Source of the DNA: an uncultured Chitinophagaceae bacterium
GTDB taxonomy: Bacteria; Bacteroidota; Bacteroidia; Chitinophagales; Chitinophagaceae
Reading direction: 5' to 3'
Assembly (NCBI GenBank): GCA_964499155.1
Contig: CAZCKF010000001.1
Coordinates: 1,057-40,783 of the forward strand
DNA length: 39,727 nt
The position numbers and the translations under genes are program-made. The notes beneath the pieces were generated by a model that saw nothing but the letters and a program-made list of their open reading frames with translations, had not been told where the DNA came from and did no database searches. Below, piece by piece: positions 1-39,727 of this stretch. The number at the start of each line of letters is the position of its first letter. The stretch's first letter is position 1.

Positions 1-263
1 TGATGTACTATTCGGTCAGGGAAATATGGCAGCCGGAATATTTCTCGCTCTTTTGGATCATAGATCTTGAATACGGAGTATTCTGAGGTACGGTAAGATT
101 TAGTTTGTAGCAGCTGCTGAAGAGAGATAAGATTTTGCTCACGGTTTCTATCATGAAGTTGAACTCCATACTGCGAAGCCTTCCCTTTCCTTGCGCGGCT
201 GTCAGCCAGCTGAAGGTTTTCCAGGGAGCACACATCCGTATATATATTACCAATTCTTCGCAT
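1..263 (-). CDS. Reverse transcriptase, DGR-type; only the N-terminal 87 codons are in the window
   Basis: The minus-strand frame is open from the in-frame TGA at 278-276 down to position 1, with ATG at 263-261. My translation is MRRIGNIYTDVCSLENLQLADSRARKGKASQYGVQLHDRNREQNLISLQQLLQTKSYRTSEYSVFKIYDPKEREIFRLPYFPDRIVH. It contains the PK.R.I and DRIV motifs seen in the N-terminal finger region of DGR/group-II-like RTs (compare Bordetella Brt YEPKPRLISALEFKDRLVQHA). It is absent from the ORF track because it has no in-window stop. Confidence 0.85.
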   Translation of the reverse strand, partial: MRRIGNIYTDVCSLENLQLADSRARKGKASQYGVQLHDRNREQNLISLQQLLQTKSYRTSEYSVFKIYDPKEREIFRLPYFPDRIVH

Positions 264-367
264 TGCCTTTGCTTTTCAAAATCGCTTTCCCGAAAAACGG
301 TACCAGTGATCTCGATTATTGAGTCATTTTTTGCCATGTTGGCAAGGCATGCGCTGCAACAAAAATA

Positions 368-443
368 TTAGCATAGGTGAGAGCTGACATTCGTATTCGT
401 ATTCCAGTTATCGTAGTTCGTATTCGAGAACCTGAAGCTGCCA
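368..443 (-). repeat. DGR template repeat (TR), non-coding, about 76 nt
   Basis: Aligns without gaps to 561-636 and 958-1032. All mismatches are at TR positions that are T on the plus strand (A on the minus strand). Read in the VR frame it gives GSFRFSNTNYDNWNTNTNVSSHLC*, with six AAY codons. It lies 104 nt upstream of the RT ATG. Confidence 0.9.
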
Positions 444-485
444 CTGACTAACGAAAAGAACACCGCTCTTGCAGCGCACTACCTA

Positions 486-875
486 TTAAGAGATCAGGAA
501 ATATTCCTTATACAGGTCAGCAAACTGCTTTCCAGCATAGGTTGCTAATTCCCTGGTTCGAAAGCAAAGGCGAGAGCCGACAGTCGTATCCGTATGCCAG
601 TGATCGTAGTACGTATACGAGAACCCGAAGCCGCCAGGACGCTTATCATCAGCCTTTATTTCAAACCATGGGAAATATTTATATTCATCGGAGTCATTCC
701 AGTTGGGTTGCCATCCATCATTCAGAGCCTCAGCGATAATGATCAACTTAAAATGTGCAATTAGGGCTTTTTGATGTTTGGAAGGCACCACTGAAACTTC
801 AGGAAGCGCCATTGGTTTTAACCCCAATTTTTCACATGCTTCCTCATAAGTTTTTACTGTTTTAGTTTTTGCCAT
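486..875 (-). CDS. DGR variable (target) protein 1, 129 aa, paralog of 862..1356
   Basis: ORF-track ORF. Contains VR1 (GGFGFSYTYYDHWHTDTTVGSRLCF), followed by a conserved tail ELATYAGKQFADLYKEYF. No signal peptide or TM segment is visible. Confidence 0.85.
   Translation of the reverse strand: MAKTKTVKTYEEACEKLGLKPMALPEVSVVPSKHQKALIAHFKLIIIAEALNDGWQPNWNDSDEYKYFPWFEIKADDKRPGGFGFSYTYYDHWHTDTTVGSRLCFRTRELATYAGKQFADLYKEYFLIS
561..636 (-). repeat. DGR variable repeat VR1
   Basis: Over TR 370-443 there are 11 mismatches, all opposite TR adenines. Two further A-type mismatches lie at 368-369. Confidence 0.9.
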
Positions 876-1356
876 TTTGAGAATTTTCTATTGTTAGGAA
901 TTGTTTGTATAGATCCTCGAACTGAGTGCCGGCATATTGAGCCAGCTCTTGAGATTTGAAGCAAAGGCGAGAGCCGACAGCCGTATGCGCAATCCAGCCA
1001 ACGCAGTACGTATGCGAGAACCCGAAGCCGCCCATCTTAAAATAAGGGATCCACTTACGCTGGTTTCCATTATCCCAATCAGGAACCCAACCTTCATTGA
1101 GTGCTCGAGCAACAATGATCAGTTTACAGTATGCTATAATAGAGGAATAGTCTTTATCAGGAACTCCAGCAGGAAGTACATCACTTTCCTGAAGCCCCAA
1201 AACTTCACACGCATCTTCAAATGTTTTTACTCGGTCAGTTATTTTTTGAGAGAAAAAGGTTTCACCAAAAGTGTCAATGAGCATTTCCTTGAACTCCTGC
1301 GATGCGGATGGGTAAAGCTTTTTAGCTTTCTTCTGATCAATCTGAAGTGTTTGCAT
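862..1356 (-). CDS. DGR variable (target) protein 2, 164 aa, paralog of 486..875
   Basis: ORF-track ORF. Contains VR2 (GGFGFSHTYCVGWIAHTAVGSRLCF). It shares the blocks TFEDACEVLGL / ALNEGW.P.W and ELAQYAGTQFEDLYKQF with target 1. Its 3' end overlaps the start of target 1 by 14 nt. Confidence 0.85.
   Translation of the reverse strand: MQTLQIDQKKAKKLYPSASQEFKEMLIDTFGETFFSQKITDRVKTFEDACEVLGLQESDVLPAGVPDKDYSSIIAYCKLIIVARALNEGWVPDWDNGNQRKWIPYFKMGGFGFSHTYCVGWIAHTAVGSRLCFKSQELAQYAGTQFEDLYKQFLTIENSQNGKN
958..1032 (-). repeat. DGR variable repeat VR2
   Basis: Over TR 370-442 there are 16 mismatches, all opposite TR adenines. All 51 non-adenine positions are identical. Confidence 0.9.
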
Positions 1357-1359
1357 GAT

Positions 1360-1740
1360 TTAAATGTTTTTTGTTTGTTTCCACACTGCAGCATTCGCGC
1401 AGTGTGCCTTTACATTTTTTACTTTTGAATAACCAACCCGGGTGATAATTCCTGCTTTAGCAGCTCTGGCAATCACTCCACCCCAAGCCCTGGCATGCGG
1501 GGGAAGTGGAAAATCAATCAACGCAGCATATGATCTTACCTCTTCAGCCATGAATGGACCATTATGCTTTGAAAGGAATACCAAGAGCAACTGATAACCT
1601 TTTTCACTCCATCCTGGAACCGCTTCATCCGCATGCTCAACAGCCTTTTTAATTCCTGCATCACGAGTATCCTTACCGGTAACGATTTTTAATACCGGCT
1701 GATCAAATAAGTTTGATTGATATGGTAGGGCTGAATTCAT
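1360..1740 (-). CDS. Hypothetical phage protein, 126 aa
   Basis: ORF in the operon, with a 4-nt overlap to the upstream gene. I recognise no motif. It does not look like an Avd four-helix bundle. Confidence 0.6.
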   Translation of the reverse strand: MNSALPYQSNLFDQPVLKIVTGKDTRDAGIKKAVEHADEAVPGWSEKGYQLLLVFLSKHNGPFMAEEVRSYAALIDFPLPPHARAWGGVIARAAKAGIITRVGYSKVKNVKAHCANAAVWKQTKNI

Positions 1741-2372
1741 TCGTTCTCTTCAAATTCAGCTTCCTGAGGAAATAATTCCTGTTGACGGTCCGGCGCACGT
1801 TTACCGGTCATGTATCGCTCAACCTCATCTATTACATCAGCGATCGCGATACTTAATTCTGAAGCAAATAAATATTCCTGGTCAAGGTTGATCTTCGGAG
1901 TTTCCAATTTGATGTGCTTGCCAGTAGTAAGACGCTTAGTTCCGGATAGGGTCACTGCGGGACTTTCCTCTTCTCCCTCCATCTTGAACGATGTGACACT
2001 ATACTTTTTAAATTTCTCAGAATGATCATTATCGCTAATCATTTCTTCCAGGCTACCATAGGCATCGGCATCTTCAATTTCTTCGCAGATCACAACCAGG
2101 TGACCGTTTAGATTATTGAATGCGTTGATCAGATCATCATGGACAGGAACTTCTGACTTTATCGATACTGAATTAATAATGTTGGCCGCAACTGTATGAT
2201 CATAGGAGTAATTGCAGAACATATCCTTCAGCGCTGCGCCCTTGATCTCGATCGGTTTTTTTGTGAGAGGAGCTGTAGCAGATTTCAAAGCATTTGTAAT
2301 GTCTTCTGCTGTTCCGCTAATTGTAGTGTGTCCATTTTCCTGAGTGATATCGATTTTCTTTCTACGTCCCAT
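1737..2372 (-). CDS. Hypothetical acidic protein, 211 aa
   Basis: ORF packed into the operon, with an acidic C-terminus (QEAEFEENE). Confidence 0.6.
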   Translation of the reverse strand: MGRRKKIDITQENGHTTISGTAEDITNALKSATAPLTKKPIEIKGAALKDMFCNYSYDHTVAANIINSVSIKSEVPVHDDLINAFNNLNGHLVVICEEIEDADAYGSLEEMISDNDHSEKFKKYSVTSFKMEGEEESPAVTLSGTKRLTTGKHIKLETPKINLDQEYLFASELSIAIADVIDEVERYMTGKRAPDRQQELFPQEAEFEENE

Positions 2373-2383
2373 GGTTGTGATTT

Positions 2384-4078
2384 TTATATTTCTAACAATT
2401 CAGGATTTAAACGAATCTTTCCAGATTCGCGTTTTATTAATTCCAGAGTATTTAAAGATGAAAGAGCATTGTTGAACCCACCAGAATTAAATGAGTATTG
2501 GCTTGGTGTTTTTGCCGCTAAGTCCTCCTTTGAAAATTCATGATTTGGATTATCAAGAAGCAGCTGATAAATTTCCCGCTCACACTTGCTGAGCTTCTCT
2601 ATATAAGTATGAATAGAATATTCCTGCGGCTCAAAATCCCCCAGGCAATGATGTAAATCTGCAGAAGTATTGGCCCTGACCTTACCTCCGTTTCTAATTA
2701 TTAGACCACTTGAATTGAGCTCACTTAATGCATTATTAAAACCACCACTATTAGGTGAGTATCCAGTTGCAACTCCGACTTGCGTTTTAGTGAATTCTCT
2801 TTCACTATAAGTTGCCAGAAACTGTAGTATTGCTTTTGGGCATTTTAATAATTTTCCGTTGGAGGATGCCTCCGTTACTTTATGATAAACCCTATCAGTA
2901 AACTTTTGATTATGATCAGTGAAGGATTTGTGTACTGGAACTGACATCACAACATCCTTCTTTGTTTCTTTTATTTGAAGCTTAGTCCAGTCAGCTTTTT
3001 TGTTTCTTGCCAGATCGCTAATCTGTTGAAGGATAGTTGCGTATTCAGTAAGCCGCTTACCTAATAGTGCCTCTTGCTGAAGATTCCGGCTAACTTCCTT
3101 TTCTAAATCCGCAATCCGCTTTTTAAATTTGCTGTCATCAAACTTTACAGCAGCTGGCTGTGAATTTTTTAACTTCGTAAGCTCACTCCTTAACCGTGCG
3201 ACCTCTGCCTGAAGCTGTTGTTTAGATACTAATTCCTTCTCAGCCTCTTCAGGTATATCAACTAGTTTGCTAAGTATTTTTTTAACAGCCGCTGGCGTAG
3301 GTGGAGCAGCTGTGATTCTTTTGCCAGCTCTTAAATGCGTTGTTACTACAGGCCCGACCTTAAATTTGGTGATCTCATTATTAATCGCGGGGCCAAATGA
3401 AAAAAATTCTCCCTCTTTTAATTCCCGAAGGGAAAGCATGTCCGTCTTATTTATCATTCCCAATTCATCTCCAGCCCTTTTGCGATCGATATCCAGGCCT
3501 GTCCTGCCAATCATCTTATTTAAACATTCGGCAGCTGCATCCTTATGAAGTTTACTTAGTCTTTGTGTTGCCAGGATACCAGCAAACCCCCGCTTCCTAC
3601 CTCTTGTGCATAGATCTATCACCGAACTCATGGATTCAGACTTGCTGCTTTCGGGGCAAAATATGTGGGCTTCATCCACATACACAAAGCAGGAATGCCA
3701 CAGTTCTTTTGGGGCATTAATTAAAGCATCCAGAAATTTTTTCACAAATTGAATGCGCTCGTAGTGCTTCAATTCATATAAATCAATAATAGCGGAAAGG
3801 TTTGTCTCAAGAAGTTTGTTGGCAAGCATTTCAGCGTATCGCAGTGATAACGGTATATCACCCCCTTTCGCCACGAGAAGGAAATCAAACTTTTCTCTTA
3901 GTGTTACGAACTCACCTTCGGGATCAATTATTATTTGCTGAACCTGGTTGCCGACTGACTCAGCTACTTTTCTAATCGCCCAGGATTTTCCACCCCCGCT
4001 CCCTGCTTGGATAAGAAGTCTTGTGTCCAATAGTTTTTGAACATCAATCTCTATTCCTATGTTGATCTTGTTTGACAC
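2384..4078 (-). CDS. HerA/FtsK-like P-loop ATPase with a coiled-coil linker and two C-terminal winged-helix-like repeats
   Basis: Walker A is GSGGGKS, Walker B is VYVDEAH, and ILATQRLSKL resembles the HerA/DUF87-type TQRPS block. A heptad-rich middle region follows. There is an 88-aa internal duplication, with YSPNSGGFNNALSELNSSGLIIRNGGKVRAN (nt 2669-2764) and YSFNSGGFNNALSSLNTLELIKRESGKIRLN (nt 2405-2500). Confidence 0.7.
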   Translation of the reverse strand: MSNKINIGIEIDVQKLLDTRLLIQAGSGGGKSWAIRKVAESVGNQVQQIIIDPEGEFVTLREKFDFLLVAKGGDIPLSLRYAEMLANKLLETNLSAIIDLYELKHYERIQFVKKFLDALINAPKELWHSCFVYVDEAHIFCPESSKSESMSSVIDLCTRGRKRGFAGILATQRLSKLHKDAAAECLNKMIGRTGLDIDRKRAGDELGMINKTDMLSLRELKEGEFFSFGPAINNEITKFKVGPVVTTHLRAGKRITAAPPTPAAVKKILSKLVDIPEEAEKELVSKQQLQAEVARLRSELTKLKNSQPAAVKFDDSKFKKRIADLEKEVSRNLQQEALLGKRLTEYATILQQISDLARNKKADWTKLQIKETKKDVVMSVPVHKSFTDHNQKFTDRVYHKVTEASSNGKLLKCPKAILQFLATYSEREFTKTQVGVATGYSPNSGGFNNALSELNSSGLIIRNGGKVRANTSADLHHCLGDFEPQEYSIHTYIEKLSKCEREIYQLLLDNPNHEFSKEDLAAKTPSQYSFNSGGFNNALSSLNTLELIKRESGKIRLNPELLEI

Positions 4079-4079
4079 T

Positions 4080-4253
4080 TCATTCAGTTATTAAATCATT
4101 TACGCTGACAGGGAACCGTTCCCCCTTTTTGTTTTCAACAATCCAAACACTGCTGCGATCACTAATCACTGTTACCGGCTCACCTTTCTTTCCATAGATC
4201 TTATCCTTTTTCATCGAGCTCGCTATATCACATTTCAGTTTCGCCTCCTTCAT
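4080..4253 (-). CDS. Small hypothetical protein, 57 aa (below the ORF-track cutoff)
   Basis: ATG at 4253 and TGA at 4082-4080, one base before the ATPase ATG at 4078. It fills an otherwise empty 190-nt gap in a tightly packed operon. Translation: MKEAKLKCDIASSMKKDKIYGKKGEPVTVISDRSSVWIVENKKGERFPVSVNDLITE. Confidence 0.55.
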   Translation of the reverse strand: MKEAKLKCDIASSMKKDKIYGKKGEPVTVISDRSSVWIVENKKGERFPVSVNDLITE

Positions 4254-4267
4254 TAAAATTCAATTGA

Positions 4268-4645
4268 TCAATAGTCATCACGATGATCATCATCCTCTTC
4301 AAATTCTGATTCCTGTATATCGCCGGCAAGCGCTTTTCCAATATTGTTTCCCTCCAAAATCAACGCATTGTGTTTTTTAACCAAGTCGCTGATCTGCCAG
4401 CTGACGATGGGAGCCAGCTCCAACCTTTCAGCATGAAACCTGGCTGTCTCTTCATCCACGGGATTAATTGCGTAGATGGCACCGGCTCCAAAAAACCTTG
4501 TGAATGCGGGCTGCCTTGTAGTTTCAGGCACATCGACACGAAGCATATTTGTTCCTGCAATATTTTGTTCGGTGCATTTCCCTGCAATTTTTGCATGGCC
4601 GAATAATTCGACGACACACCATAAATCAAACTTTTCTTGGTTCAT
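4268..4645 (-). CDS. Hypothetical protein with an acidic tail, 125 aa
   Basis: ORF in the operon. The C-terminus is ESEFEEDDDHRDDY. Confidence 0.6.
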   Translation of the reverse strand: MNQEKFDLWCVVELFGHAKIAGKCTEQNIAGTNMLRVDVPETTRQPAFTRFFGAGAIYAINPVDEETARFHAERLELAPIVSWQISDLVKKHNALILEGNNIGKALAGDIQESEFEEDDDHRDDY

Positions 4646-4659
4646 AAAATCATGATTGA

Positions 4660-5325
4660 TTATGCTGCTTCAGTTATTTGTGAGAATAGATACCAGTACT
4701 TAAAAGCCAGTTCCTGGTATTTTAATTTCCCACTGTTATAGAATTCCCCGCCTCTTTTTATCGGAAGTTTAAAAACCTTACAATTCACTTTCGATATACC
4801 GATCAACATGTCATTCTCCACCCCCTCTATATCCATATAGAGAGCCCGCTGCCGGTCGTAATCGAAATGCCGGCATGCATCCTCAAACTGTTTTTGGCTG
4901 ACGGCTGTTGTGCTTTTGATATCTCCACTGAGCCTGAGCTTTGGCATGGCGTAGAGATCCCATTTGCAACGTACATCCAGGGTAAACTGGAAGCCGTCAT
5001 GCTCAATAAGGAAATCCTTTTTAATACTTACTTTTTGAAATTCACTATGCTTGGCGAGTGTTGCACAGAACTCATCCTTGTAAAAAGCTGCTTTCATTTT
5101 CTTTGCCAGGTCAAATTCCTCGCGAGAATATCTCTCACCGGCACAGGTCATATTGAAGTAGTTAATCTTCTCCGGTTCAGTGATCATGCAATCGATCAAT
5201 GTTCCAAACCGGTAGGCCTGTTCAACATCATGGATCTGATCTTCCTGCATCCAATATTTCTTTAACCAGGATAGATCACTGTTGCTCACTTCGGGCATGA
5301 AATAATATGGATCTTTCTCTGCCAC
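4660..5325 (-). CDS. PD-(D/E)XK family exonuclease (RecE/exonuclease VIII-like, DUF3799-like)
   Basis: Motifs LDVRCKWD ... SGDIKST ... FDYDRQRALY fit the D..(D/E)xK plus Q.A.Y pattern of RecB/Cas4-like phage exonucleases. It sits in a recombination module with RecT. Confidence 0.65.
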   Translation of the reverse strand: MAEKDPYYFMPEVSNSDLSWLKKYWMQEDQIHDVEQAYRFGTLIDCMITEPEKINYFNMTCAGERYSREEFDLAKKMKAAFYKDEFCATLAKHSEFQKVSIKKDFLIEHDGFQFTLDVRCKWDLYAMPKLRLSGDIKSTTAVSQKQFEDACRHFDYDRQRALYMDIEGVENDMLIGISKVNCKVFKLPIKRGGEFYNSGKLKYQELAFKYWYLFSQITEAA

Positions 5326-6783
5326 TTACGCCTTAACTGCTTTTCGGTTAACAGATTTGATCGCTACTTCATACGCAAGGAATTTGCTATCGATTTTCTC
5401 ACCGGTTTTTTTAGCAACACCTTCAGCGTATGTTTTGATTTGGACAAAGGTTTTTTTCTCCAGTTCATCGAGCGAAAGATTTACTCCCTGGCGCTGGTAC
5501 CAAAACGTGATCAGCTCGATCCAACCTGCAGAATGAGTAACCTTAATATCGAAGCCGCTTCGAGTCTCCGGCGCCGCATTACCATTTGATGTCTCAGCCA
5601 CCTGGTCGAAAAGAAGTTGCGCAGATCCTGCTGCTTTTTGTAATTCAGATTCCTCAGCAGCTTTTTTCTTTGCTTCCTCAGCCTCTACTCTCAACCGCTC
5701 ACCTTCTGCAGCCTCACGTTCTTTTTGCTGGCGCTCAGCTTCAGCTTTCTTTTCTTCTGCTTCCTTTTCCAACCTGGCTAACCGGTCCTTCTCTTCCTTC
5801 ATAATGCGTTCATTCTCTGCCTGCAGTCTTTTTTGTTCTACAGCATCGGCTTTTTCCATTTCACGGCGCCGCTGGATCTCTGCTTCCTTTTGACGGGCTA
5901 ACTCAGTCTGTCTCGCTGTTTCAGCTTCATCTGCAATCCGCTTTTGTTCAAGGAGCTCTTCCTTCTTAGAAGAAAGCTGATCAATCAAGGATTGCTTCAT
6001 CAAAGCGATATCCTCCTTGTACTGGGCATAGAACTTTTTGAAATCATACCCATCCATCTCAGTGCTGACTATAGAATCATATTCTTCTTGCGTATGGCGG
6101 TAGAAATTGACATCAGTCTTTTTTACGATTTCATTCAATTTGTTGACGGGAAAATCGGTGACCATCATAGCGAGCTTGCCTGACTTCTCTTCGAAATTTG
6201 TAAGTGTGATAGCATTGAATGAATTTGTGATCTGTAGTTTTCTTTCAGCCAGGTAATCAAGAAGGTTCTGCGTAATTGCATTTTTTAAATATGCGCGGAT
6301 CTCAATTTCTTCTTTTGCTTTGGCTGCACGCGCTTCGGATTCTTTACGGATCCTTTCCTGTTCCTGCAGCTGCTCCCGGGCATATACATTTCTTTCAGCC
6401 TGGATCGCAGCAGGCACACTACCTGGCTTTGCTGCATCGATCAAATTTTCTTGTTCAGTGAAAAACTTGATGATCATATTCATTACCTGTGTCACCGGAG
6501 ATCGCAGGTCATTCTCTTCTTTCTTTGCCTTTGCGCAATTGGCCAGGTAATTATTGCAGCGATCGTCCAGCGATTTGCGCTTTTCCAAATATTCTTCTCT
6601 GGAGATATCGCCACCTTCAAAGGAATCTTTCAAAGCCCGGAGCTCTGTAAGCAACTTATTTCCGACGGCGAGTGCTTTCGTGCTTCTGTCCTGGTTACTT
6701 TTCAGGATCTCGCCCGCGCTTTTTAATACATCCAGCGATCGATTAATTACGACCAGCTGGTTATTGTCTTGAACTGCTTCCAT
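5326..6783 (-). CDS. Long KE-rich coiled-coil protein, 485 aa from the ATG at 6783
   Basis: The ORF-track ORF 5326..6876 overlaps recT by 74 nt. The internal Met (MEAVQDNN) at 6783 leaves a 19-nt gap after the recT stop. It contains about 120 aa of E/K/R/A repeats (QKEAEIQRRREMEK...AEEAKKKAAEE). Confidence 0.7.
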   Translation of the reverse strand: MEAVQDNNQLVVINRSLDVLKSAGEILKSNQDRSTKALAVGNKLLTELRALKDSFEGGDISREEYLEKRKSLDDRCNNYLANCAKAKKEENDLRSPVTQVMNMIIKFFTEQENLIDAAKPGSVPAAIQAERNVYAREQLQEQERIRKESEARAAKAKEEIEIRAYLKNAITQNLLDYLAERKLQITNSFNAITLTNFEEKSGKLAMMVTDFPVNKLNEIVKKTDVNFYRHTQEEYDSIVSTEMDGYDFKKFYAQYKEDIALMKQSLIDQLSSKKEELLEQKRIADEAETARQTELARQKEAEIQRRREMEKADAVEQKRLQAENERIMKEEKDRLARLEKEAEEKKAEAERQQKEREAAEGERLRVEAEEAKKKAAEESELQKAAGSAQLLFDQVAETSNGNAAPETRSGFDIKVTHSAGWIELITFWYQRQGVNLSLDELEKKTFVQIKTYAEGVAKKTGEKIDSKFLAYEVAIKSVNRKAVKA

Positions 6784-19446: not shown

Positions 19447-22400
19447 TTAATTCCTAAATCGACCTCGCATTTTATCTCCTATAATCTGGTTGGGGTTAAC
19501 AATAATGATCACCGTATCAGTAGCCGTTGCGCCTCGATCATCAGTAACCGTAACCTGGAAAGTATAAGATGATGCTGGCTGCAGTCCTGCTATCACGGTC
19601 CCTCCCTGGGTTGGGAATCTTATTATCGATCCGTTTCCGGAAAGTTTTGTATGCAGTATAGAGACAATATTTCCGTCATCGTCATTTGCCTTTATCGATA
19701 CTATAATTGAATCGCCTTCAATAAACTGTGTTGCTGCTCCTTCAAACTCCACTGTTGGAGAAGAATTGACAAGAACTGTAACTGTGTCTTTAGCGATTGC
19801 TCCGCGGTTATCAGTAACCATCAATTCGAATTGGTAAGTACCAGGGATAAGGCCTGTTAATCCTGTTGCAGAAAGTGCAGGAGTTGTAATCGTTACAGCT
19901 CCACCGGTTAGTTTACTCCACAAATAAGTTAAAATGGTACCATCTTCATCATTAGCTGATCCAGTCAGTACTGTTGAAGTTGATGGAGTATTTATTTGTA
20001 AATCCGGGCCAGCCGAAACAATCGGTGTTGCATTAGCGGTCACAACAATAACGACTACATCATCATCGATTGCGTCATCATCATCTTTAACTCTAAGATT
20101 TAATTGATAGGTCCCGGGTGTTAATCCTGAAAATGTTGTGCTTGCTGAATTTGCATTTCCAAATGTTCCACCGGTGCCAGATATTTTAGTCCATTGATAA
20201 GTAACTATCGTGCCGTCAGAATCTGTCCCACCTCCGGATAATGTTACTGAGCTATTTGGTGGATAATAAATGGATTGGTCACTACCAGCATTTGAAATGG
20301 GTTGAATGTTTACAGGGGGTGCAGCATTAACAATAACGGTGATAGTATCAACCGCAGTTGCACCGCTGTTGTCTGTTACAGTTAATTTAATCTGGTATTC
20401 CCCGGCCGTAAATCCCGTCACTGTCGTTGTTGCACTTGCGGTTGCAGTAATCGTGTGTGGTCCAGCTGTTATTTTACTCCAGGCATATGTTGAGATCGTC
20501 CCATCTATATCAGTTCCGGAACCGTTTAATGTCATCTCACTAACCGGTAAATCAAACTCCTGATCACTACCGGCATTCGCTGTTGGAGGAATATTAGGTG
20601 CAGGGTTAACGGTTATAGTAACAGTATCGTCATCTGTTGCCCCTTGGTTATCCGTTACAACTAATTTCAATTGATAAGCCCCTGCTGTAAATCCAGAAAC
20701 TGTTGTAATTTGACTGGAAGGATTTATAATCGTGTGTGCCCCTGCAGTAATTTTTGACCAGACGTAAGAAACAATCGAGCCGTCTGGATCTAGACTACCA
20801 TCACCCTTTACACTTACTGTGTTTCTTGGGAGAGTAATAGTTGAATCTGTCCCAGCATTGGAAATGGGGTTTGTATTAGTAGGAGGACCTGATGTAGTGA
20901 ACCCAAATCCGAGAGCCTTATAAGTATCATCATCGCGGAGCCTATAATCATCAGGAGGGTGCAATCTTCTTACACCTCCTTCATTCCAGGTTAATAATTC
21001 CCAGTTGGCGTCTGTGTAACCTTTAGGAACGTTTCCGGTATTATTAAAAATCTTGGAGCGGTAAAATTTTCCAAAATAAAAAGCAACCTCATTAAGTGAA
21101 TAACTCCATGGTTGCAGCCATTTAGGAGCAATCCCAGGCGTAGGCGACTCATCCTTATAAGTAGCATAAATTAAATCTGCCCACCATGAATTATTATTAA
21201 AATTGTAGTTATCACCCCATCCGGAATTAACATACTTCGGATATGCTACCGGTATCCCGTTTTGGTTTCCGGAGCTATCAAGATTCGCGGCAGTTACAAG
21301 AATTGATTTTGATCCGTCGCTTTTGTTGTTCTTAAATATTGCCCTGAAAGTATTGTCAGTTTTGAAAACTATGTTATCATTCTTTCCTTCTGTTGCATTG
21401 GAATTATAAACCCGGTCATTAGTCCACTGCATGTTCTTGAAGAAGTTGCCGGTAATACTGATTTTTTCATTAGGTAACCTGCTTGAATGTGACCCGCCAC
21501 GTGAACCATGTATATCTCCAAGGAAATTATAATCAACATGGTTTGTATCGCCGTTAGGTGCAACTATAATATCCCTGGCTGATCCGTTAGCAAAGAATTG
21601 TGTTGCACCTTGAACTATGTTATATTGAAATCTGTTTCCACCGTTCCTATATGCCATTTGAAATCCCCGATCGTTGAATGGTCCGAAAGGAGTCATGAAT
21701 TTGAACCCTGCATTAATTACAACATTGTTGTGAATGCTGTTACCTAAGCCCTGATTATTAAACTGTATTCCTTCACTCCCAGTCCTTACGATAAGATTGT
21801 CATGAATGTCCCATCCATTGCCCTGATGTTGCCAATTTATAACAGCCGAATCCTGGCCATTGACACCTTTTACATATATCGTATCACCGGACGTGGATAA
21901 CGCATAAATTCCTTCACTACTCAAATCATGCAGGAAATTGTGATGGACTTTGAAGAAGTCATAATCGTTTGTACTTGTGAGAGCCAGATCTTCTGCCTTG
22001 ATAAAGAATCCTGAGAAATATCCGTTAGCAGCTTCAAAGTTGTCCATCTCGACAGAATCTGTAAATGCTCCGGCCAATAAAACGCCATGCTGATTTAAAT
22101 TCTGCCACCTGTTATTGGCATAAAAACCAAACTTCCCATGACGGTTGGCATAGCCCCCGGCAAAACCCTGGTAGTTAACGTGACCTCTCACACCTGGTAC
22201 ATATGCTCCTGACCAATGAACGTTTCTAAGGTTGGAAACTTTCCATTCTCCCATCCATTCAACCTGGCCACCGTAGGTGTACATAAAATTCCTATTACCA
22301 GCTGCTGAGCTTCCAAAGAATGTACTGTCCTGAAAATGTGTTGTGATAGCACCATACCGCCCGGCTCTTACCCATATGCCTCTATTCGGTGCAAGAGCAA

Positions 22401-23955
22401 TTTGATCGGTATTGTGCAGATAGATATTATATTTCGATCCATTGATAACAACATCATTTGCACCATCGATGATTATGTCACCAAGAGCCATAAATGCCCA
22501 TGTACCAATATCCGCCGGTGTTACAAGTCTCCAGCCATTACCGTTTGTCGCTTGCGGTGGAGGGGTGCCGCGGTTCACGAAAATCATCATACTATCAGTA
22601 CTCGTGCATCCGCTATCGTTAGTAACAGTGAGGTATATTTTCTGTCCCGCCACTGAAGAAAACGAAGGCATCAAAACTTCTGGAGTTGCTGTATTGCTGT
22701 GTTTAATATTATATGTCTGCGCTAATGGATCTCCTTTGGGTGGAATAGCTTTATACCAATTGTAATTAACGTTAATGCCTGTAGATGCTAAACCATTTAA
22801 ATAAACAGTATGGGTTGTATCATCAAGTTCAATTGTTTTATCAGGCCCTGCGTTAGCTACACAAGTCCCTGGATCAACAGGAACAGCAGGGTTGACAGTT
22901 ATTTGAACAGTATCTAAATCAGACAGACTTGAATTATCTGTAACTAATAAGCTAAATTGATAGGTACCGGCCACCAAACCGGTTGCAGAAGTTGATACAC
23001 TATTAGCCGTTGTAAGATTGTAAGTATTAGGCCCCGATACCCTTCTCCATAAATAGGAAGTGATTGACCCCCCTGGATCTGAAGAACCCGAGCCATTCAG
23101 TGTAACTGAATTTGTAGGTAAGGTGATTGTTTGGTTTGATCCAGCATTGGATATAGGTGCTCCTGTTGTCGGCGGAGCAGGCGTATTGGCCGGCGTGATC
23201 AGCCACTCATAAACACTTTTACCACCTTCCCTGTAATTCGGATTATAATAATTATTCCAACAGCAATGCCCCCCACTGAACATTGTCATTTTATTATTCG
23301 GATAGCCTGCATTTGTAAGATTATTTATAAAAGCCTGCAAAGACTGGCCGCGTCCTGCGTCGTTATTTCCCGAAATCGCCCATACAGGGATTGACGCATA
23401 ATTTGAAATAGATCCGTGAAAAGCAAACGACATGGGAACAATTGAAGCCACCTTTGCTTTGGCACCCGGAATAGTATTTATGTATTCAAATATGGAGTAA
23501 GCACCACATGACAACCCTGTAAGAGAAATTTTATTATTCCCCATTGAATACCGCTGCCTCACCGCCTCAACCAATCCATCATAAACAGTTGCGTTCATAC
23601 ATGAAGCCTTCGGTTGGACAGCTATGATCCGAATGTTTGCAGGTCTTAGAGAGCCATTGCTCATATAGATTGCAGGACCATGGACAAACAATCTTGTATG
23701 CTGCCCCATTTTTTCAGCTACGGTATATGGAGGAATACCGTCTGGTCCATGTATGCCTACTCCGTAATCCCTTGCTTCATCTCTTCCTGTTGTGAACATG
23801 ATCGTTTTAGTAGAACTATTTGCACCCGTCGGCACCCACTCAACAATATTGATCACGTCACCAGATACAATCATTGTATCAATGCGGTAACCGGGAACCT
23901 GCCCGTATACAAGTACTCCTAATAAAATAAATCCTATCGTTATTAATCTTTTCAT
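19447..23955 (-). CDS. Giant multidomain tailspike-like/depolymerase protein with signal peptide, alpha/beta-hydrolase esterase, PKD-like, right-handed beta-helix, CBM-like and 5x PKD-like domains
   Basis: Start at MKRLITIGFILLGVLVYGQ (ATG 23955, one base after the upstream TAA). The esterase triad is in order: GLSCG, NNDAG, GGHCC. Beta-helix-type repeats include NNVVINAG and HDNLIV. A CBM5/12-like block is YSLNEVAFYFGKFYRS...ANWELL. Five tandem ~90-aa Ig/PKD-like repeats span nt ~19489-20871. Confidence 0.7.
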   Translation of the reverse strand: MKRLITIGFILLGVLVYGQVPGYRIDTMIVSGDVINIVEWVPTGANSSTKTIMFTTGRDEARDYGVGIHGPDGIPPYTVAEKMGQHTRLFVHGPAIYMSNGSLRPANIRIIAVQPKASCMNATVYDGLVEAVRQRYSMGNNKISLTGLSCGAYSIFEYINTIPGAKAKVASIVPMSFAFHGSISNYASIPVWAISGNNDAGRGQSLQAFINNLTNAGYPNNKMTMFSGGHCCWNNYYNPNYREGGKSVYEWLITPANTPAPPTTGAPISNAGSNQTITLPTNSVTLNGSGSSDPGGSITSYLWRRVSGPNTYNLTTANSVSTSATGLVAGTYQFSLLVTDNSSLSDLDTVQITVNPAVPVDPGTCVANAGPDKTIELDDTTHTVYLNGLASTGINVNYNWYKAIPPKGDPLAQTYNIKHSNTATPEVLMPSFSSVAGQKIYLTVTNDSGCTSTDSMMIFVNRGTPPPQATNGNGWRLVTPADIGTWAFMALGDIIIDGANDVVINGSKYNIYLHNTDQIALAPNRGIWVRAGRYGAITTHFQDSTFFGSSAAGNRNFMYTYGGQVEWMGEWKVSNLRNVHWSGAYVPGVRGHVNYQGFAGGYANRHGKFGFYANNRWQNLNQHGVLLAGAFTDSVEMDNFEAANGYFSGFFIKAEDLALTSTNDYDFFKVHHNFLHDLSSEGIYALSTSGDTIYVKGVNGQDSAVINWQHQGNGWDIHDNLIVRTGSEGIQFNNQGLGNSIHNNVVINAGFKFMTPFGPFNDRGFQMAYRNGGNRFQYNIVQGATQFFANGSARDIIVAPNGDTNHVDYNFLGDIHGSRGGSHSSRLPNEKISITGNFFKNMQWTNDRVYNSNATEGKNDNIVFKTDNTFRAIFKNNKSDGSKSILVTAANLDSSGNQNGIPVAYPKYVNSGWGDNYNFNNNSWWADLIYATYKDESPTPGIAPKWLQPWSYSLNEVAFYFGKFYRSKIFNNTGNVPKGYTDANWELLTWNEGGVRRLHPPDDYRLRDDDTYKALGFGFTTSGPPTNTNPISNAGTDSTITLPRNTVSVKGDGSLDPDGSIVSYVWSKITAGAHTIINPSSQITTVSGFTAGAYQLKLVVTDNQGATDDDTVTITVNPAPNIPPTANAGSDQEFDLPVSEMTLNGSGTDIDGTISTYAWSKITAGPHTITATASATTTVTGFTAGEYQIKLTVTDNSGATAVDTITVIVNAAPPVNIQPISNAGSDQSIYYPPNSSVTLSGGGTDSDGTIVTYQWTKISGTGGTFGNANSASTTFSGLTPGTYQLNLRVKDDDDAIDDDVVVIVVTANATPIVSAGPDLQINTPSTSTVLTGSANDEDGTILTYLWSKLTGGAVTITTPALSATGLTGLIPGTYQFELMVTDNRGAIAKDTVTVLVNSSPTVEFEGAATQFIEGDSIIVSIKANDDDGNIVSILHTKLSGNGSIIRFPTQGGTVIAGLQPASSYTFQVTVTDDRGATATDTVIIIVNPNQIIGDKMRGRFRN

Positions 23956-23956
23956 A

Positions 23957-26900
23957 TTAATATACTCCAACCCAGTGCCTTACTGTGTTACCTGCTATTG
24001 TTGATGCAGTTATAGTTGCAGGAAGTGAGTTTGTTGCGGACTTTTGTCCGATTAAAAAATTACTATTGGTAAAATCCATTGATGTTTCATTTGTAAGACC
24101 TGCTGTTACAATTCCTATTTGAGGAGGAGTAGATGCTGACGAATAATTCAGAAGTAATCCAACATAATATCTACCTCTTGGAAGTGTAATTGGAGATGTG
24201 AATGGCTCTTTCGTCATAGCGTTTACAGTGCCCTTGTATAAATTGGGGTTATCTGCACTGCTTGCCAGAAGCGTCATTGTTCCACCAATACTTTTTGTGA
24301 AAATTCCGACCTGGTTTGTCTGATCAGCTGTATAAACACCGGAAAGTGTGAGCCAGAACATAACACCAGTGATCGTTCTTGTCTCCGGGATATCAATTGC
24401 CGCATACCTGGCAACGTTATCAACGACTGCTGAAGCACTACCTGCAGTAATGTTATAAAACGTCCAGCCTATATTCTCACCTTTAATTTCTGAACCCAAA
24501 TCCTGATAAGCTGCTATTGTACTACGCTCCCTGTCACCTATCGCCTTCCAGTTTGTGCCATCAGATTTGAACTCGTAAACCCGGTCATTATCCAATGCTG
24601 TTATAGCCACATCTTCAGCATCAACAACAGATCCTGAAACAAGCCAAGTGAATGCAGCAGAATTATTATTTGTTACTTTAATTATTTGCCCTGCTACTTG
24701 AGATGGGAATGTTAGTGTGCGATTAGCTGTTATTGTTGGCAGGATCTGGTGAGTAACCGCCATTGAAGTATTGGCATCGGAAGCTGTGGCTGTATAAAGG
24801 GTGAGTACAGGCGTCGAAAGATTTATTCTATTTGCCCATAGGCTAAAAATGTCAATCTTATCTGCATTCTCTCCAAGGTCCACATCAAAAAGACCACCGC
24901 CTATTATTCTGTTCGAGGTAAAATCTCCGTCAGCCGTAAGCCAGCTTGAACCGCCGCCAGAAGCGTTGATTGTTGTGCCGGTGATTGATAAATTGGTGCC
25001 TAGTGTAAGCCATTTAAATGCATTATCACTTTCATCCCAAAATGCAATCCGGTCAGCTCCTGGATCAGACAGAGCTTCCAGTCCTAAATGAGAAAGTGCT
25101 ATCGTTGGATTTGCAGAAACACCATTCCCGTTTGTTACACCTATTCCGGTCCCTTGGGTAATTGTTCTACCAGTGAAATTATCTGCGCTCGTTTGGACAA
25201 CAATCCCATTTGTATTGAAAGAAGCCAGAGCGGCCAGTGTTGCATCTGATCCTTGTGCACCGATATCAGAAAGTGTTTCTGCACCTGTACGATATCTTAC
25301 TTCTCCGTCGCCATCAATAACAAGGAATTTATCAAGGTCAGTTGTTTCGTGGTGAACTTGGCTAAGAGAAAGAGAGTCATATACGCGGATATTACCAATC
25401 CCAGGATCAATTGGTTCAGCTCCTGTTCCAAGAACGATTCCTCCTGCTCTAAAAAACTTACCATAGGTAATTCCACCTGGTGAAACTTCAACAGCCGTAA
25501 CACCTACCACCAAATCAGAAAAATCACTATTCGCATTTAATGAAATTGAAGTAGGGTCGCGCAATACGAGTGCACCTTGATGATAGAGTGACGCATTTGC
25601 TGCAGTTGCGTTTACCACTCCACCAAACCAGATCCCATAAAAACTATTTACATTACTAAGGCCTATATCCATTCCTCCTGATGAACCTATGTGCCATCGC
25701 TTATTTGCTTCGTCCCAGGAGAAGTATGGATAAGATTGTGTCAGCTCAGCATCGGCTCCAATAAATGGAATTGATCCGGGAGTGAACCCTGTAAGTACGG
25801 GTGCTTGATCAAAGGTGTTTATTCCGGTAAAAATGTTGTTGATAGCAAGATGCGGAACCTCCTCTTTGTTAGCCTTGAAATTGTATAGAAAATCGAAAGT
25901 GCCAGATGATATTATACCGTCCTGACCAGATTCATCAGCATACCTAATCCTTAAAGAATCGTTGGAAACATAAAGCGGATTAACAGCGATTGTAGTTGCA
26001 TTGCCTGAAAGCTTATAAGCCCAAGTTCCTGGGTTTCCTGCAGCTGTGCAGTACCATATTAATACTGAATCAGGACCCCCCTGATTAATCACAATATCTC
26101 CAACACCGTGTTTACCGACTGTTGGAGGCCCGGACCCACCCCTGATATTTCTTTTACTCCCATTAGCTGGGTTAGTAAGGAAAAAACCATCCTGGTGAAA
26201 AATAGTAAGTCCGGCTCGCACAGCTGAATCGCGACCGAAATCAGTACCAGCTATTGCATTACCAGTAATACTGAAAGCAGTATAATCAATTGAGTTATTC
26301 CAAAATAAGCGTGCATACTTATCGGATTCAAAATATTTTATAGATCCGTAGCTGTGGGCAGATTTTTTTGATCCAAATACATGACCGGATACCCAGTCAA
26401 CTCCGGAAAATTCATTTGTTGAATCTCGATTATAAACCTCAACTCCTTTGCCACGAAACACTCTTCTGCCTTCTACCACCTCATCATATGAACTTCTATG
26501 AAATGCATTGTTACCAACAACCTCGACTGCAGCTGCATTGGTGCCTCCGTTCCACATTCCACGAAGTCCTAAGTCGTGGCCTCCCTGCTCACCTTCAGTG
26601 TAACCCCAAATCTTTGTTCTTGCTACCTGACCAGATACTTTAATGACCCGGGAACCATAATATTTTACATCCGATCTCCAAACTTTAGATATCAATGATG
26701 CATCGCCGGCGCAGCACACTGTCATGTCCTGCCAGTAGTCACCATAATCAGATGCAGTTGGATTTTTATTGATGTTATCCTCGACGGCTAAGTAATACCT
26801 CCATATCCCACCAACGAATATTTTAACCCATGAATCCTGCAGTGTAGAATCACGCAATCCATTGGATGCGATATGCACGTTGCTGTAAGTATTGCCGTGG

Positions 26901-28159
26901 GCGGACTCATCAAGAATTCCATGACGGCTATTGGTCTGGATGTCGGGATTTTCAATACTTATTGCATTTGCGTCCCATCCGCTTAGGTGAATACCGTGAT
27001 GACGGTTTTGCCAGACATGAATGTTGCGAAGAACAGAAGTACTCGCGTTTCCTGAATCAGTTGGTGAACCAGCCGTATTTCCAAAGCCTCTTACACCGGT
27101 TGCCGGAAAACCTTGAAAGGTTAGATTATCTGCAACAATACCGGTATTAAACACCATCCCATGTTTCGTCGTATCTGTACCGCCGGCAAGAGCATAAAAA
27201 TGCAGGTTCTCAACTCTTACATTCCGTGCCTTGAGACCTTGAGAGGTTTGTAAAATTTGCAGGCCTGAGTTATTCGCAGCTACATAAAACCTTGTTTCAG
27301 GATAAGGTTGAAAACCGGCGCCAAGACCTATCAGGTTTACAGCTGTGTCGATCAAAATCGGTTTACTAATAAAGTACCCATCGACAGGCGGTGGAACTAG
27401 AACTACACCCCGATTGACAATAAGATTTGTGGGATGCAGGGAAACTGGTTTATTCGCTTTCAGGGCCCTGGTCATAGGAAGCCAGTCATCGGCGATCAGA
27501 TTTCCAACAAGACCAAACCATTTAGCAGAAGATGTTCTGTTTTCCAGGTTACTTACATCGATGTTCTTATCGAAGCATTGCTTCATTAAATTGCAATCGA
27601 TCAAACCGCCATTCCATTTTGCTGCTCCTCCAGAAGCGACTATTCTATTATCATTTCTGAATGTGATGACTTTGGTACCGGCATTAACTGTTCCGGTGAT
27701 TGTGATATCACGCTGCGAGAGATCATCAAAAATTAATTCTTTTACACTGGCAATTGCAAGTGCGGCATTTATTTTAGCAGTCTGATCGGTACCATCCCCT
27801 TTAATTCCTAAATCTTTTGCTCGTAACGTGCCAGCCTCCACATACCAAAAAGATTTCACGCCATTCTTCCAGCAGTAGAGTGAATCAGTCCCCTGTTTTT
27901 TAATTACACTATCACAACCCACGCCACCGGCACCACTCATGTGCTCTTCCCAGAAAGTTTTTTTTATGTAGATCTTTCCATTCTTGTATGCAATGGATCC
28001 TGAATCAGCAGTGGCCAAAGTATCGGGAAGGCGCAGCTGCCCACCAGGAGCAAACCTTAATTTTAAAAATTCAAATGGTGTATAGTTTTTCTGATAGACT
28101 TGCGCGATCGCTACACTGCAGATCAGTAAAAGAAAAACTATGAACGAATACTTTTTCAT
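23957..28159 (-). CDS. Giant beta-helix (pectate-lyase-superfamily-like) tailspike-like protein with an N-terminal signal peptide, 1400 aa
   Basis: Signal peptide MKKYSFIVFLLLICSVAIAQ. KDLGIKGDGTDQTAKINAALAIAS is the typical start of pectate_lyase_3/tailspike beta-helices. The body is long and rich in G, N and T. Confidence 0.65.
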   Translation of the reverse strand: MKKYSFIVFLLLICSVAIAQVYQKNYTPFEFLKLRFAPGGQLRLPDTLATADSGSIAYKNGKIYIKKTFWEEHMSGAGGVGCDSVIKKQGTDSLYCWKNGVKSFWYVEAGTLRAKDLGIKGDGTDQTAKINAALAIASVKELIFDDLSQRDITITGTVNAGTKVITFRNDNRIVASGGAAKWNGGLIDCNLMKQCFDKNIDVSNLENRTSSAKWFGLVGNLIADDWLPMTRALKANKPVSLHPTNLIVNRGVVLVPPPVDGYFISKPILIDTAVNLIGLGAGFQPYPETRFYVAANNSGLQILQTSQGLKARNVRVENLHFYALAGGTDTTKHGMVFNTGIVADNLTFQGFPATGVRGFGNTAGSPTDSGNASTSVLRNIHVWQNRHHGIHLSGWDANAISIENPDIQTNSRHGILDESAHGNTYSNVHIASNGLRDSTLQDSWVKIFVGGIWRYYLAVEDNINKNPTASDYGDYWQDMTVCCAGDASLISKVWRSDVKYYGSRVIKVSGQVARTKIWGYTEGEQGGHDLGLRGMWNGGTNAAAVEVVGNNAFHRSSYDEVVEGRRVFRGKGVEVYNRDSTNEFSGVDWVSGHVFGSKKSAHSYGSIKYFESDKYARLFWNNSIDYTAFSITGNAIAGTDFGRDSAVRAGLTIFHQDGFFLTNPANGSKRNIRGGSGPPTVGKHGVGDIVINQGGPDSVLIWYCTAAGNPGTWAYKLSGNATTIAVNPLYVSNDSLRIRYADESGQDGIISSGTFDFLYNFKANKEEVPHLAINNIFTGINTFDQAPVLTGFTPGSIPFIGADAELTQSYPYFSWDEANKRWHIGSSGGMDIGLSNVNSFYGIWFGGVVNATAANASLYHQGALVLRDPTSISLNANSDFSDLVVGVTAVEVSPGGITYGKFFRAGGIVLGTGAEPIDPGIGNIRVYDSLSLSQVHHETTDLDKFLVIDGDGEVRYRTGAETLSDIGAQGSDATLAALASFNTNGIVVQTSADNFTGRTITQGTGIGVTNGNGVSANPTIALSHLGLEALSDPGADRIAFWDESDNAFKWLTLGTNLSITGTTINASGGGSSWLTADGDFTSNRIIGGGLFDVDLGENADKIDIFSLWANRINLSTPVLTLYTATASDANTSMAVTHQILPTITANRTLTFPSQVAGQIIKVTNNNSAAFTWLVSGSVVDAEDVAITALDNDRVYEFKSDGTNWKAIGDRERSTIAAYQDLGSEIKGENIGWTFYNITAGSASAVVDNVARYAAIDIPETRTITGVMFWLTLSGVYTADQTNQVGIFTKSIGGTMTLLASSADNPNLYKGTVNAMTKEPFTSPITLPRGRYYVGLLLNYSSASTPPQIGIVTAGLTNETSMDFTNSNFLIGQKSATNSLPATITASTIAGNTVRHWVGVY

Positions 28160-38919: not shown

Positions 38920-39727
38920 TTAGAACGCTATTGTACGAGACAACAGGTATATTCCGTCAATTGAATCCAAGCCAGGCATTGCGTTGAGTTCAACCTTTGT
39001 GAATTCCTGCCATGGATCATTATCTCCCCATTTTGAAATAAGTGCTTTATTGAATTTTGCATAACTGATCTGCTGAAGAGGTTTCAGGTCTTCAATAGCA
39101 AATGCATTATGAATGGTGCCAAGTTTTCCAGCTGGTACAAAAACAATATTTGTATCCTCGAATGGACTGATCGTTGAAATCACACCATCTTTTTCAATAC
39201 CGATAGTGTGGTCAACTATTTCAATTGGTGGAAGATTTTGTTTCCTCAGGTAATCATTGGCAGTTTCCATTGTAGGAATCAGTCTATTATTTCCGGTACG
39301 GCCAAGGAAAGCACTGTATTGATCAAGAACCTGTGTGGTTGCAATGAATGCATACCATGAATTCCAGGTCATAAGAATTCTGCCAAAAGAAATTCCGCGT
39401 GCGCGGGCTGCATTTACGATCCCCTGGATATCTGTTATCGGTTTTGCCGTGGTAGGAGATCCTGTCCAGTTGACTGCAGCATTCACTTTATTGCCTGCCG
39501 GCATTAACAGGTCCAGTGGATTTGCAAGAACAATACCATCTGGGTTATTGGTAACGGTGAGACTGATCTTGCCCGTGCTCACTGCTTCCAAAGACATGAT
39601 GTCAATTCTTTTCATTGCTGCATCACCAACCTTTTTCACATCATCGAAAATCAGGTCAAGAATCTGCTGCTTTTTCACCTGGTCGCCGATAGGCATATTT
39701 TGTAACACCAGGTATTCCCTCATTAGT
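38920..39727 (-). CDS. Major capsid protein, lambda gpE family (5' end beyond the window)
   Basis: DIMSLEAVSTGKISLT aligns with lambda gpE EEMQAVSAVLKGKYTMT, and the C-terminus DPWQEFTKVELNAMPGL aligns with DPAREFTMIQSAPLML. The frame is still open at 39727, and about 80-100 N-terminal residues appear to be missing. Confidence 0.8.
   Translation of the reverse strand, partial: LMREYLVLQNMPIGDQVKKQQILDLIFDDVKKVGDAAMKRIDIMSLEAVSTGKISLTVTNNPDGIVLANPLDLLMPAGNKVNAAVNWTGSPTTAKPITDIQGIVNAARARGISFGRILMTWNSWYAFIATTQVLDQYSAFLGRTGNNRLIPTMETANDYLRKQNLPPIEIVDHTIGIEKDGVISTISPFEDTNIVFVPAGKLGTIHNAFAIEDLKPLQQISYAKFNKALISKWGDNDPWQEFTKVELNAMPGLDSIDGIYLLSRTIAF

Follow-up and report, generated by a model that had tools for sequence, protein, structure and literature searches.

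The left edge of a 39,727-nucleotide stretch of DNA from an uncultured Chitinophagaceae bacterium (assembly GCA_964499155.1, contig CAZCKF010000001.1, forward-strand positions 1,057 to 40,783; the whole of this stretch is called the window below) very probably encodes the start of the reverse transcriptase (RT) of a diversity-generating retroelement (DGR). We are highly confident that minus-strand positions 263..1 specify the first 87 residues of a DGR RT belonging to a temperate siphovirus-like phage whose host is probably a member of the Bacteroidota, and that the 109-amino-acid (aa) open reading frame (ORF) called at 8..337 is not a gene. The RT fragment and the spacer RNA upstream of it complete the parts list of a DGR whose repeats lie at 369-1032, and the annotation of this edge should become a partial RT gene plus a non-coding DGR RNA, replacing a 109-aa hypothetical protein. 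The catalytic part of the RT would lie beyond the window edge, and the DGR is, we infer, currently active.

A reverse transcriptase begins at the window edge

Minus-strand frame 275..1 is free of stops and translates to KAKA-MRRIGNIYTDVCSLENLQLADSRARKGKASQYGVQLHDRNREQNLISLQQLLQTKSYRTSEYSVFKIYDPKEREIFRLPYFPDRIVH, with an ATG at 263..261. The nearest in-frame stop lies five codons upstream of this ATG and the interval between them holds no ATG, GTG or TTG, so M263 is the sole possible start of the RT; the relatives all begin at the aligned position, with MKR or MRR. An earlier note on this DNA had proposed this open frame, this start and a translation, and re-translation gave us the same 87 residues. 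It had also estimated that about a quarter of the enzyme is visible and that the catalytic YxDD motif falls outside the window; both estimates agree with the full-length relatives, which have 315-344 residues, the length expected here, and nearly all of which carry YADD near residue 212, while the window stops at residue 87.

Homology identifies the fragment as an RT. The PHROGs family phrog_1423 (“Reverse transcriptase”) matches it at E 8.1e-22, and a search of protein collections returned 19 relatives (E 5e-33 to 2e-4, 44-69% identity), two of them named RNA-directed DNA polymerase and one reverse transcriptase; the NCBIfam models gave no score on the 87-residue fragment. For longer copies we analysed 80 loci kept of 84 confirmed in IMG/VR and 80 of 543 confirmed in species-representative genomes, cited below by locus number (L001 and so on). 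The fragment shares 54-71% identity with the N-termini of two sets of RTs, approximately 75 from IMG/VR with at least 315 aa and 80 from genomes that are full-length or nearly so; together these are more than 150 RTs of Bacteroidota phages and prophages. Approximately 75 of the 80 IMG/VR relatives reach this length, most with 315-344 aa and three with 408-428 aa, and among these YADD occupies residues 211-214 in all but two, the exceptions being one YLDD and one YCDD. The RT family has 543 confirmed loci in species-representative genomes; the 80 listed are almost all from Bacteroidota, with Chitinophagaceae, Pedobacter, Elizabethkingia and Flavobacterium among them.

The enzyme resembles the RT of Bordetella phage BPP-1 (bRT) above all other solved RTs. 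A family profile, made by aligning the fragment with 13 full-length IMG/VR relatives and searched against the PDB, matched bRT (8ub7_A, 328 aa) at E 1.2e-65 over residues 3-319, compared to 9e-29 for group II intron RTs and 2e-28 for the retron-type structures 5hhj/5hhl; the Ec78/St85 retron RTs came no closer than 1e-5. Searched alone, the fragment had bRT as its sole PDB match (E 6e-4 over bRT residues 4-86). In bRT, the counterparts of the segments D69-PKEREI-75 and F81-PDRIVH-87 are EPKPRLI and FKDRLVQH, and the two segments are the blocks, PK.R.I and DRIV(H/Q), that the earlier note had read as RT motifs 1-2. Upstream of them, G27-K28 corresponds to G28-K29 of bRT, the conserved G-K of the N-terminal extension. 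Fragment residues K28, F65, R73 and I75 are conserved as K29, F66, R74 and I76 of bRT, which contact the phosphate of the first template nucleotide, the template base and the incoming deoxynucleotide triphosphate in structures from cryo-electron microscopy (10.1101/2023.10.23.563531). Every invariant residue of the family is kept in the visible 87 codons, and there is no defect there.

The motif 4 signature (I/L/V)GxxxSQ marks DGR RTs off from other RTs. In this family the DGR form of the motif, (I/L)GxxxSQ, appears as PIGNYLS, which is invariant in the 13 aligned full-length relatives; the bRT counterpart is PIGSLTSQ. Motif 4 is expected near residue 180 and falls outside the window.

Adenine-only differences identify a template and two targets

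Three copies of a 74-nucleotide (nt) repeat lie upstream of the RT on the same strand (Table 1). Because all differences fall at adenines of the first copy, 442..369, we conclude that this copy is the template repeat (TR) and that the other two are variable repeats (VRs). TR and VR1 differ at 12 positions and TR and VR2 at 17, with 29 of 29 mismatches at template adenines; none of the 51 non-adenine positions of the TR differs in either VR; and the 10 differences between VR1 and VR2 are all at template-adenine sites. Twenty-one of the 23 template adenines stand at codon position 1 or 2 of the target frame, and the VR1 mismatches are mostly at these two positions. The earlier note had called the RT DGR-type, and this adjoining TR, together with bRT as the best structure match, upholds the assignment.

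The two targets are tandem paralogues with 51% protein identity, both belonging to phrog_11581. The clean identity of the repeats despite this divergence argues for recent copying from the template. The 164-aa target has 2305 homologues, and the predicted fold of the targets (predicted local distance difference test score 83.6) is mostly helical, with low confidence in the variable loop, residues 111-124; the model had no match in the PDB, and its matches in BFVD were uncharacterised phage proteins only. The targets adjoin replication and recombination genes rather than tail genes.

On the minus strand the order is therefore two tandem small target genes, each with a VR, followed by the TR, a 105-nt spacer RNA, and the RT. 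Between the last TR-homologous position, 369, and the ATG at 263 lie 105 nt on the same strand (368..264), within one base of the 104 nt given in the earlier note; the layout that it described is the one we find, and its view that TR-spacer-RT is the usual arrangement is matched by the relatives, among which a TR, a spacer of approximately 100 nt and an RT are the rule. The larger cassette of two to three small tandem targets, TR, spacer of approximately 95-105 nt, and RT recurs in dozens of relatives, and a second subgroup (L001, L003 and others) has one large target and a 344-aa RT. Between the last target stop (486) and the TR (442), a terminator-like hairpin with a T-run at 477..460 on the minus strand did not rise above chance in a consensus scan. 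This hairpin might end the target transcript, or might belong to an upstream part of the DGR RNA.

A conserved, structured spacer RNA

The spacer between TR and RT is strongly conserved in sequence across relatives. The Rfam motif RT-17 (RF03020) matched the window at 268..349 on the minus strand over its full length (model positions 1-95 of 95) with 23.3 bits and E 0.02-0.12, below the RT-17 gathering score of 40.4; judged by this match the spacer is evidently related to RT-17 while standing outside the Rfam membership threshold. RT-14 (RF02921) matched more weakly. The RT-17 gathering score was reached by 2 of the 20 related loci scanned, L035 (43.1 bits) and L075 (40.4 bits).

The motifs RT-1 to RT-19 were described as RNAs beside RT genes, with RT-10 found in the BPP-1 spacer (Weinberg et al. 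2017, PMC5737381). Only RT-10 was tied to a DGR, and the authors speculated that other RT motifs serve other DGRs (PMC5737381). The window spacer shares with RT-17 a CCUUGCC...GGCAA hairpin, an A-run, a helix around UGGUA and a small hairpin, a GAA, and an AAAAGCA, all in the same order, and its match lies directly upstream of an RT gene on the same strand. The Rfam entry has no assigned function.

A covariance model built from 39 relatives had one match in the window (261..387, minus strand, 106 bits) and exactly one in each related locus, always between TR and RT. The covariation score of 0.245 exceeded those of all controls (0.134 +/- 0.008 in 500 shuffles, at most 0.125 in slid controls), with the qualification that the alignment was fitted to the structure and its figures lean towards it. 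In hairpin H1 the pairs 345..340/336..331 are kept in nearly all of 48 sequences, and four core pairs show compensatory changes (U-A in 39 and C-G in 9; G-C in 47 and A-U in 1; C-G in 45 and G-C in 3; C-G in 38 and U-A in 7). Helices P2 and P3 have moderate support: they are 55-60% paired, with double changes at 7 of 10 pairs in P2 and 3 of 3 in P3, in an alignment that is imperfect here. The GTA within the GGTA enclosed by P2 is invariant in the 39 relatives.

The end of the spacer is complementary to the variable repeats

The last nucleotides of the spacer contain a predicted primer segment, AAAGCAAAGGC, that complements the VR 3′ ends better than the TR 3′ end: 11 of 11 positions pair with VR1 (571..561) and 10 of 10 with VR2 (968..959), compared to 7 of 10 with the TR (378..369), and the three mismatches to the TR end are all at template adenines. 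The same preference holds across the family. In 104 distinct VR/spacer pairs the longest exact complement averages 7.5 nt, vs 4.9 nt for the TR end, 5.0 for shuffled spacers, and 5.8 for non-cognate pairs. A matched change separates two close relatives, GTCTGGCTTT occurring with AAAGCCAGAC in L063 and GCCTGGCTTT with AAAGCCAGGC in L064.

The 3′ ends of the repeats also carry what seem to be constant differences. Comparing window positions 369-385 (minus strand) with related loci L003-L082, we found that at the three 3′-most recurrent template adenines (in TCAGC, TCACC and CTATGC) approximately 90 VRs almost always have G, G and T, and that the 3′-most VR differences include a synonymous change of CTA to CTT. 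Since these sites are nearly always G, G and T, and since one of the changes is synonymous, we read them not as products of mutagenesis but as fixed template/target differences of the kind that separates the initiation of mutagenic homing (IMH) site of the target from its template counterpart, IMH*. Fixed 3′ differences are consistent with the known 3′ boundary effect (10.1101/2024.11.15.621889).

BPP-1 has the same asymmetry. In our check of that element, spacer positions 47-56 (Sp47-56, TAGGTGGTCA) pair 10 of 10 with VR118-127 and 7 of 10 with TR118-127. The seven pairs agree with a published account in which the template:primer duplex has “seven base pairs” (PMC6182149), and primer complementarity has been proposed as the basis of IMH-directed homing (Naorem et al., PMC5703328). 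By analogy with BPP-1, the repeat-plus-spacer transcript would fold so that 274..265, the last ~10 nt of the spacer, anneal to the TR 3′ end (378..369); the RT would extend from this spacer primer, copying the TR into complementary DNA (cDNA) and misincorporating opposite adenines; and the RNA-linked cDNA would replace the variable repeats. On this model priming would start from G266 or C265, with TR 378 or 379 as the first base to be copied. What would direct the cDNA to the VRs and not to the TR is the full complementarity of the primer segment to the VR ends and its mismatches to the TR end. The recurrence of primer-to-IMH complementarity in an unrelated sequence context provides independent comparative support for the BPP-1 model of directional homing. 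In one relative (L040:5728-6001) an insertion of approximately 150 nt separates the conserved spacer RNA from the RT start codon, and the adjacency of primer and ATG is therefore not obligatory.

Alternative readings of the edge

ORF 8..337 could in principle be a real gene lying across the RT start in another frame, and it does have 109 open codons with an ATG start and remains open across 84 RT codons, as happens in only approximately 5% of synonymous recodings of the RT fragment. A chance event of this size is, however, unremarkable given the many alternative frames of a 40-kb window, and the ORF lacks homologues and matches no family of Pfam, PHROGs or NCBIfam significantly. In 53 of 53 distinct relatives the equivalent frame is interrupted by 2-9 stops (mean 5.1) within the first 85 RT codons. 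Its first 25 codons, moreover, overlie the conserved structured RNA, and its ATG (337..335) consists of the last loop base and the first two 3′-arm bases of hairpin H1, the pairs of which covary. We conclude that a real gene here is very improbable; the earlier note, which had found the ORF featureless and probably spurious, was right on both counts, and positions 263..1 are best read as the start of the DGR RT.

Several observations weigh against that identification or against an intact element. Only a quarter of the enzyme is in the window; motifs 3-7, the YxDD and the stop codon, in an expected 230-260 further codons, would lie beyond its left edge. Pfam RVT_1 gives no score on the 87-aa fragment alone; full-length relatives of the fragment do pass it. 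No Avd-type gene was seen near the TR, in the course of an analysis that did not scan all window ORFs with an Avd model. The duplex between the TR 3′ end and the last 30 nt of the spacer has an energy no better than those of shuffles (mean z -0.23), and because this test is unsupportive the priming geometry rests on the BPP-1 analogy and on a structure-fitted alignment. Finally, all 19 protein-database homologues are short (89-148 aa), the RT gene of L001 is visibly split by a frameshift, and that of L002 appears broken into several short ORFs. The short database RTs (P0001-P0019; L001:9339-10347; L002:10001-11702) may reflect low-coverage assembly errors or retrieval bias. The IMG/VR and genome copies of the RT are mostly intact.

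The short and broken copies, with L001 split at residue 147, L002 at 119, and L009, L014 and L037 under 200 aa, are also what would favour a decayed or truncated RT gene, with an intact N-terminus, a frameshifted or missing remainder and an inactive retroelement; the remainder is, in addition, not visible in the window. We consider decay unlikely. The visible 87 codons are free of defects and keep all invariant family residues, the L001 contig has only ~2x coverage so that its frameshift may be an assembly error, and both VRs match the TR at 51 of 51 non-adenine positions although the paralogous target genes are down to 51% protein identity, a pattern expected only if retrohoming has been recent. 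Less likely still, and in our view extremely improbable, is an RT of another prokaryotic class (group II intron, retron, or DRT/UG defence) that merely lies beside a repeat. The PADLOC model RT_UG19 does match the fragment alone weakly (E 1e-5), and many generic RT models match the full-length relatives, but those relatives score far under the NCBIfam cut-offs for Drt3a (83.8 vs 200), retron St85 (65.7 vs 235) and Drt2 (52.1 vs 390), and reach 112-118 bits (best 117.6) against a cut-off of 300 for TIGR04416, the group II intron RT/maturase model. Window positions 1..1500 also gave no Rfam match to a group II intron RNA. bRT is the best solved match by approximately 37 orders of magnitude, and the adjoining repeat has the adenine-only mismatches that define DGRs.

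Table 1. Features of the DGR and of the phage in the window, with examples of an accessory ORF in related loci
Feature	Position	Strand	Description
DGR RT N-terminus	1..263	minus	87 complete codons and 2 nt of codon 88, truncated at the window edge; N-terminal extension and fingers (RT motifs 1-2)
Predicted primer segment	265..275	minus	Ends one base before the RT start codon; complementary to VR 3′ ends
DGR spacer RNA, Rfam RT-17/RT-14 type	264..368	minus	Rfam and covariance model of relatives
Helix P2 (315..305 with 286..276)	276..315	minus	Encloses GGTA 304..301 and hairpin P3 (300..298 with 292..290); minimum free energy (MFE) fold
Hairpin H1 (TTGCCA / ACA / TGGCAA)	331..345	minus	Followed by A-run 332..327; covariation, MFE fold
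109-aa ORF, spurious call	8..337	minus	Covers the RT N-terminus in its +1 frame and 74 nt of spacer RNA
TR	369..442	minus	74 nt, 23 adenines; repeat family D1, alignment, mismatch table
VR1	562..635	minus	Residues 81-105 of the 129-aa target ORF 875..486(-)
VR2	959..1032	minus	Residues 109-133 of the 164-aa target ORF 1356..862(-)
Two large ORFs (1507 and 1400 aa)	19447-23970 and 23957-28159	minus	Downstream of the tape-measure gene
Major head gene (phrog_29)	38920-39727	minus	Cut by the right edge, ~118 profile positions missing
phrog_19665 ORF in relatives	L026:6947-7246, L028:6947-7243, L001:8794-9093		Examples

Comparison with BPP-1 and Avd-less DGRs

The RT itself is an ordinary member of a well-known, abundant kind, and the RT family, the class of RNA motif, Avd-less architectures, and the logic of primer and IMH have all been described already. 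Like bRT (PDB 8ub7 series; AY029185 brt), with its 328 aa, the relatives have 315-344 aa and match it end to end as a profile, and the fragment keeps the lysine of the N-terminal extension and the fingertip residues; identity is nevertheless low, the fragment alone reaching only E 6e-4. The order TR-spacer-RT is common to both elements, as is a primer that pairs 7/10 with the TR end and 10/10 with the VR end. They differ in dimensions, with a TR of 74 nt in the window vs 134 nt in BPP-1 and a spacer of 105 nt vs 144 nt, and in the internal order of the spacer: in BPP-1 the primer at Sp47-56 comes before a long bRT-binding stem, whereas in the window the structured elements come first and the primer occupies the last 10 nt before the ATG. 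The targets differ too, two small tandem genes here in contrast to a single tail-fibre gene in BPP-1.

A further difference from BPP-1 is the absence of avd between target and TR, which only 43 nt separate in the window; there is no room for the gene between the target stop at 486 and the TR at 442. In the PHROG scan the two ORFs nearby, 1360..1740 and 1737..2372, hit only families without a known function. Avd is a basic four-helix bundle of approximately 128 aa, present in 74% of DGRs and thus not universal. “Architecture A,” a TR-RT core with no accessory gene, makes up 29% of DGRs, and Lineage 3 is without avd (Wu et al. 2018, PMC5758913). Lineage 3A occurs in Bacteroides and relatives, and more than one target is found in approximately 15% of DGRs (PMC5758913). 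The window element resembles these Avd-less DGRs in its target(s)-TR-RT order, in having no avd in the usual place, in its multiple targets, and in its Bacteroidota relatives, so far as layout and taxonomic range go. It departs from them in that relatives of its RT carry a basic ORF of approximately 100 aa (phrog_19665), outside the four accessory classes of that paper, in which the CH1 accessory proteins are acidic and 160-169 aa long (PMC5758913).

A possible lineage without Avd

Among 156 related full-length loci, 119 have this basic ORF (pI 8.7) overlapping the RT stop codon. L078, L082 and L123 have it fused to the RT, and in L001, L020 and L054 it lies between target and TR, the position of avd, a placement that goes with the subgroup with one large target. 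Pfam had no match for the protein, its sequence resembled neither Avd nor any other solved structure, and a search of the window with the phrog_19665 profile found no copy. The phrog_19665 protein is a candidate non-Avd accessory, which would lie beyond the left edge, if present.

We tentatively suggest, as a joint reading that we rate somewhat short of an even chance, that the element belongs to a large, uncharacterised lineage of Avd-less DGRs in phages of Bacteroidota with parts unlike the Bordetella model. These parts would be a spacer RNA of RT-17 type whose primer abuts the RT start codon; a phrog_19665 protein that replaces Avd and is translationally coupled to the RT in most loci; and small, mostly helical phrog_11581 targets beside replication and recombination genes. 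Only the RNA and the targets are visible in the window. If this reading is true, it points to the diversification of something besides receptor binding. The abundant lineage that this RT represents could serve as a compact, Avd-free comparison to Bordetella, with a 74-nt TR, a 105-nt spacer and an RT of approximately 320 aa.

Phage context

The gene content of the window is that of a temperate siphovirus-like phage and includes a major head protein, a tape measure, an integrase, RecT and an exonuclease. The window is not circular: on the right it breaks off within the major-head gene, it lacks a terminal repeat, and joining the two ends gives no continuation of the RT. A scan of ten large ORFs brought no portal or clear large-terminase gene to notice; the 564-aa ORF at 2384..4078 has a weak, partial match to the terminase ATPase. 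The contig thus looks like an incomplete phage genome. Megablast of window positions 1-6000 against phage records returned no match, an exact search with bases 1-40 found none in viral, metagenome and genome collections, and the 211-aa neighbour protein led to no close relatives of the phage in IMG/VR. Exact look-ups of five window proteins, and of a database entry identical to the 164-aa target, yielded a 1,085-bp Logan contig and nothing else. Downstream of the tape measure, the ORFs at 19447-23970 and 23957-28159 on the minus strand had no PHROG match at E 1e-5 or better and presumably encode proteins of the tail or of host recognition whose type is undescribed.

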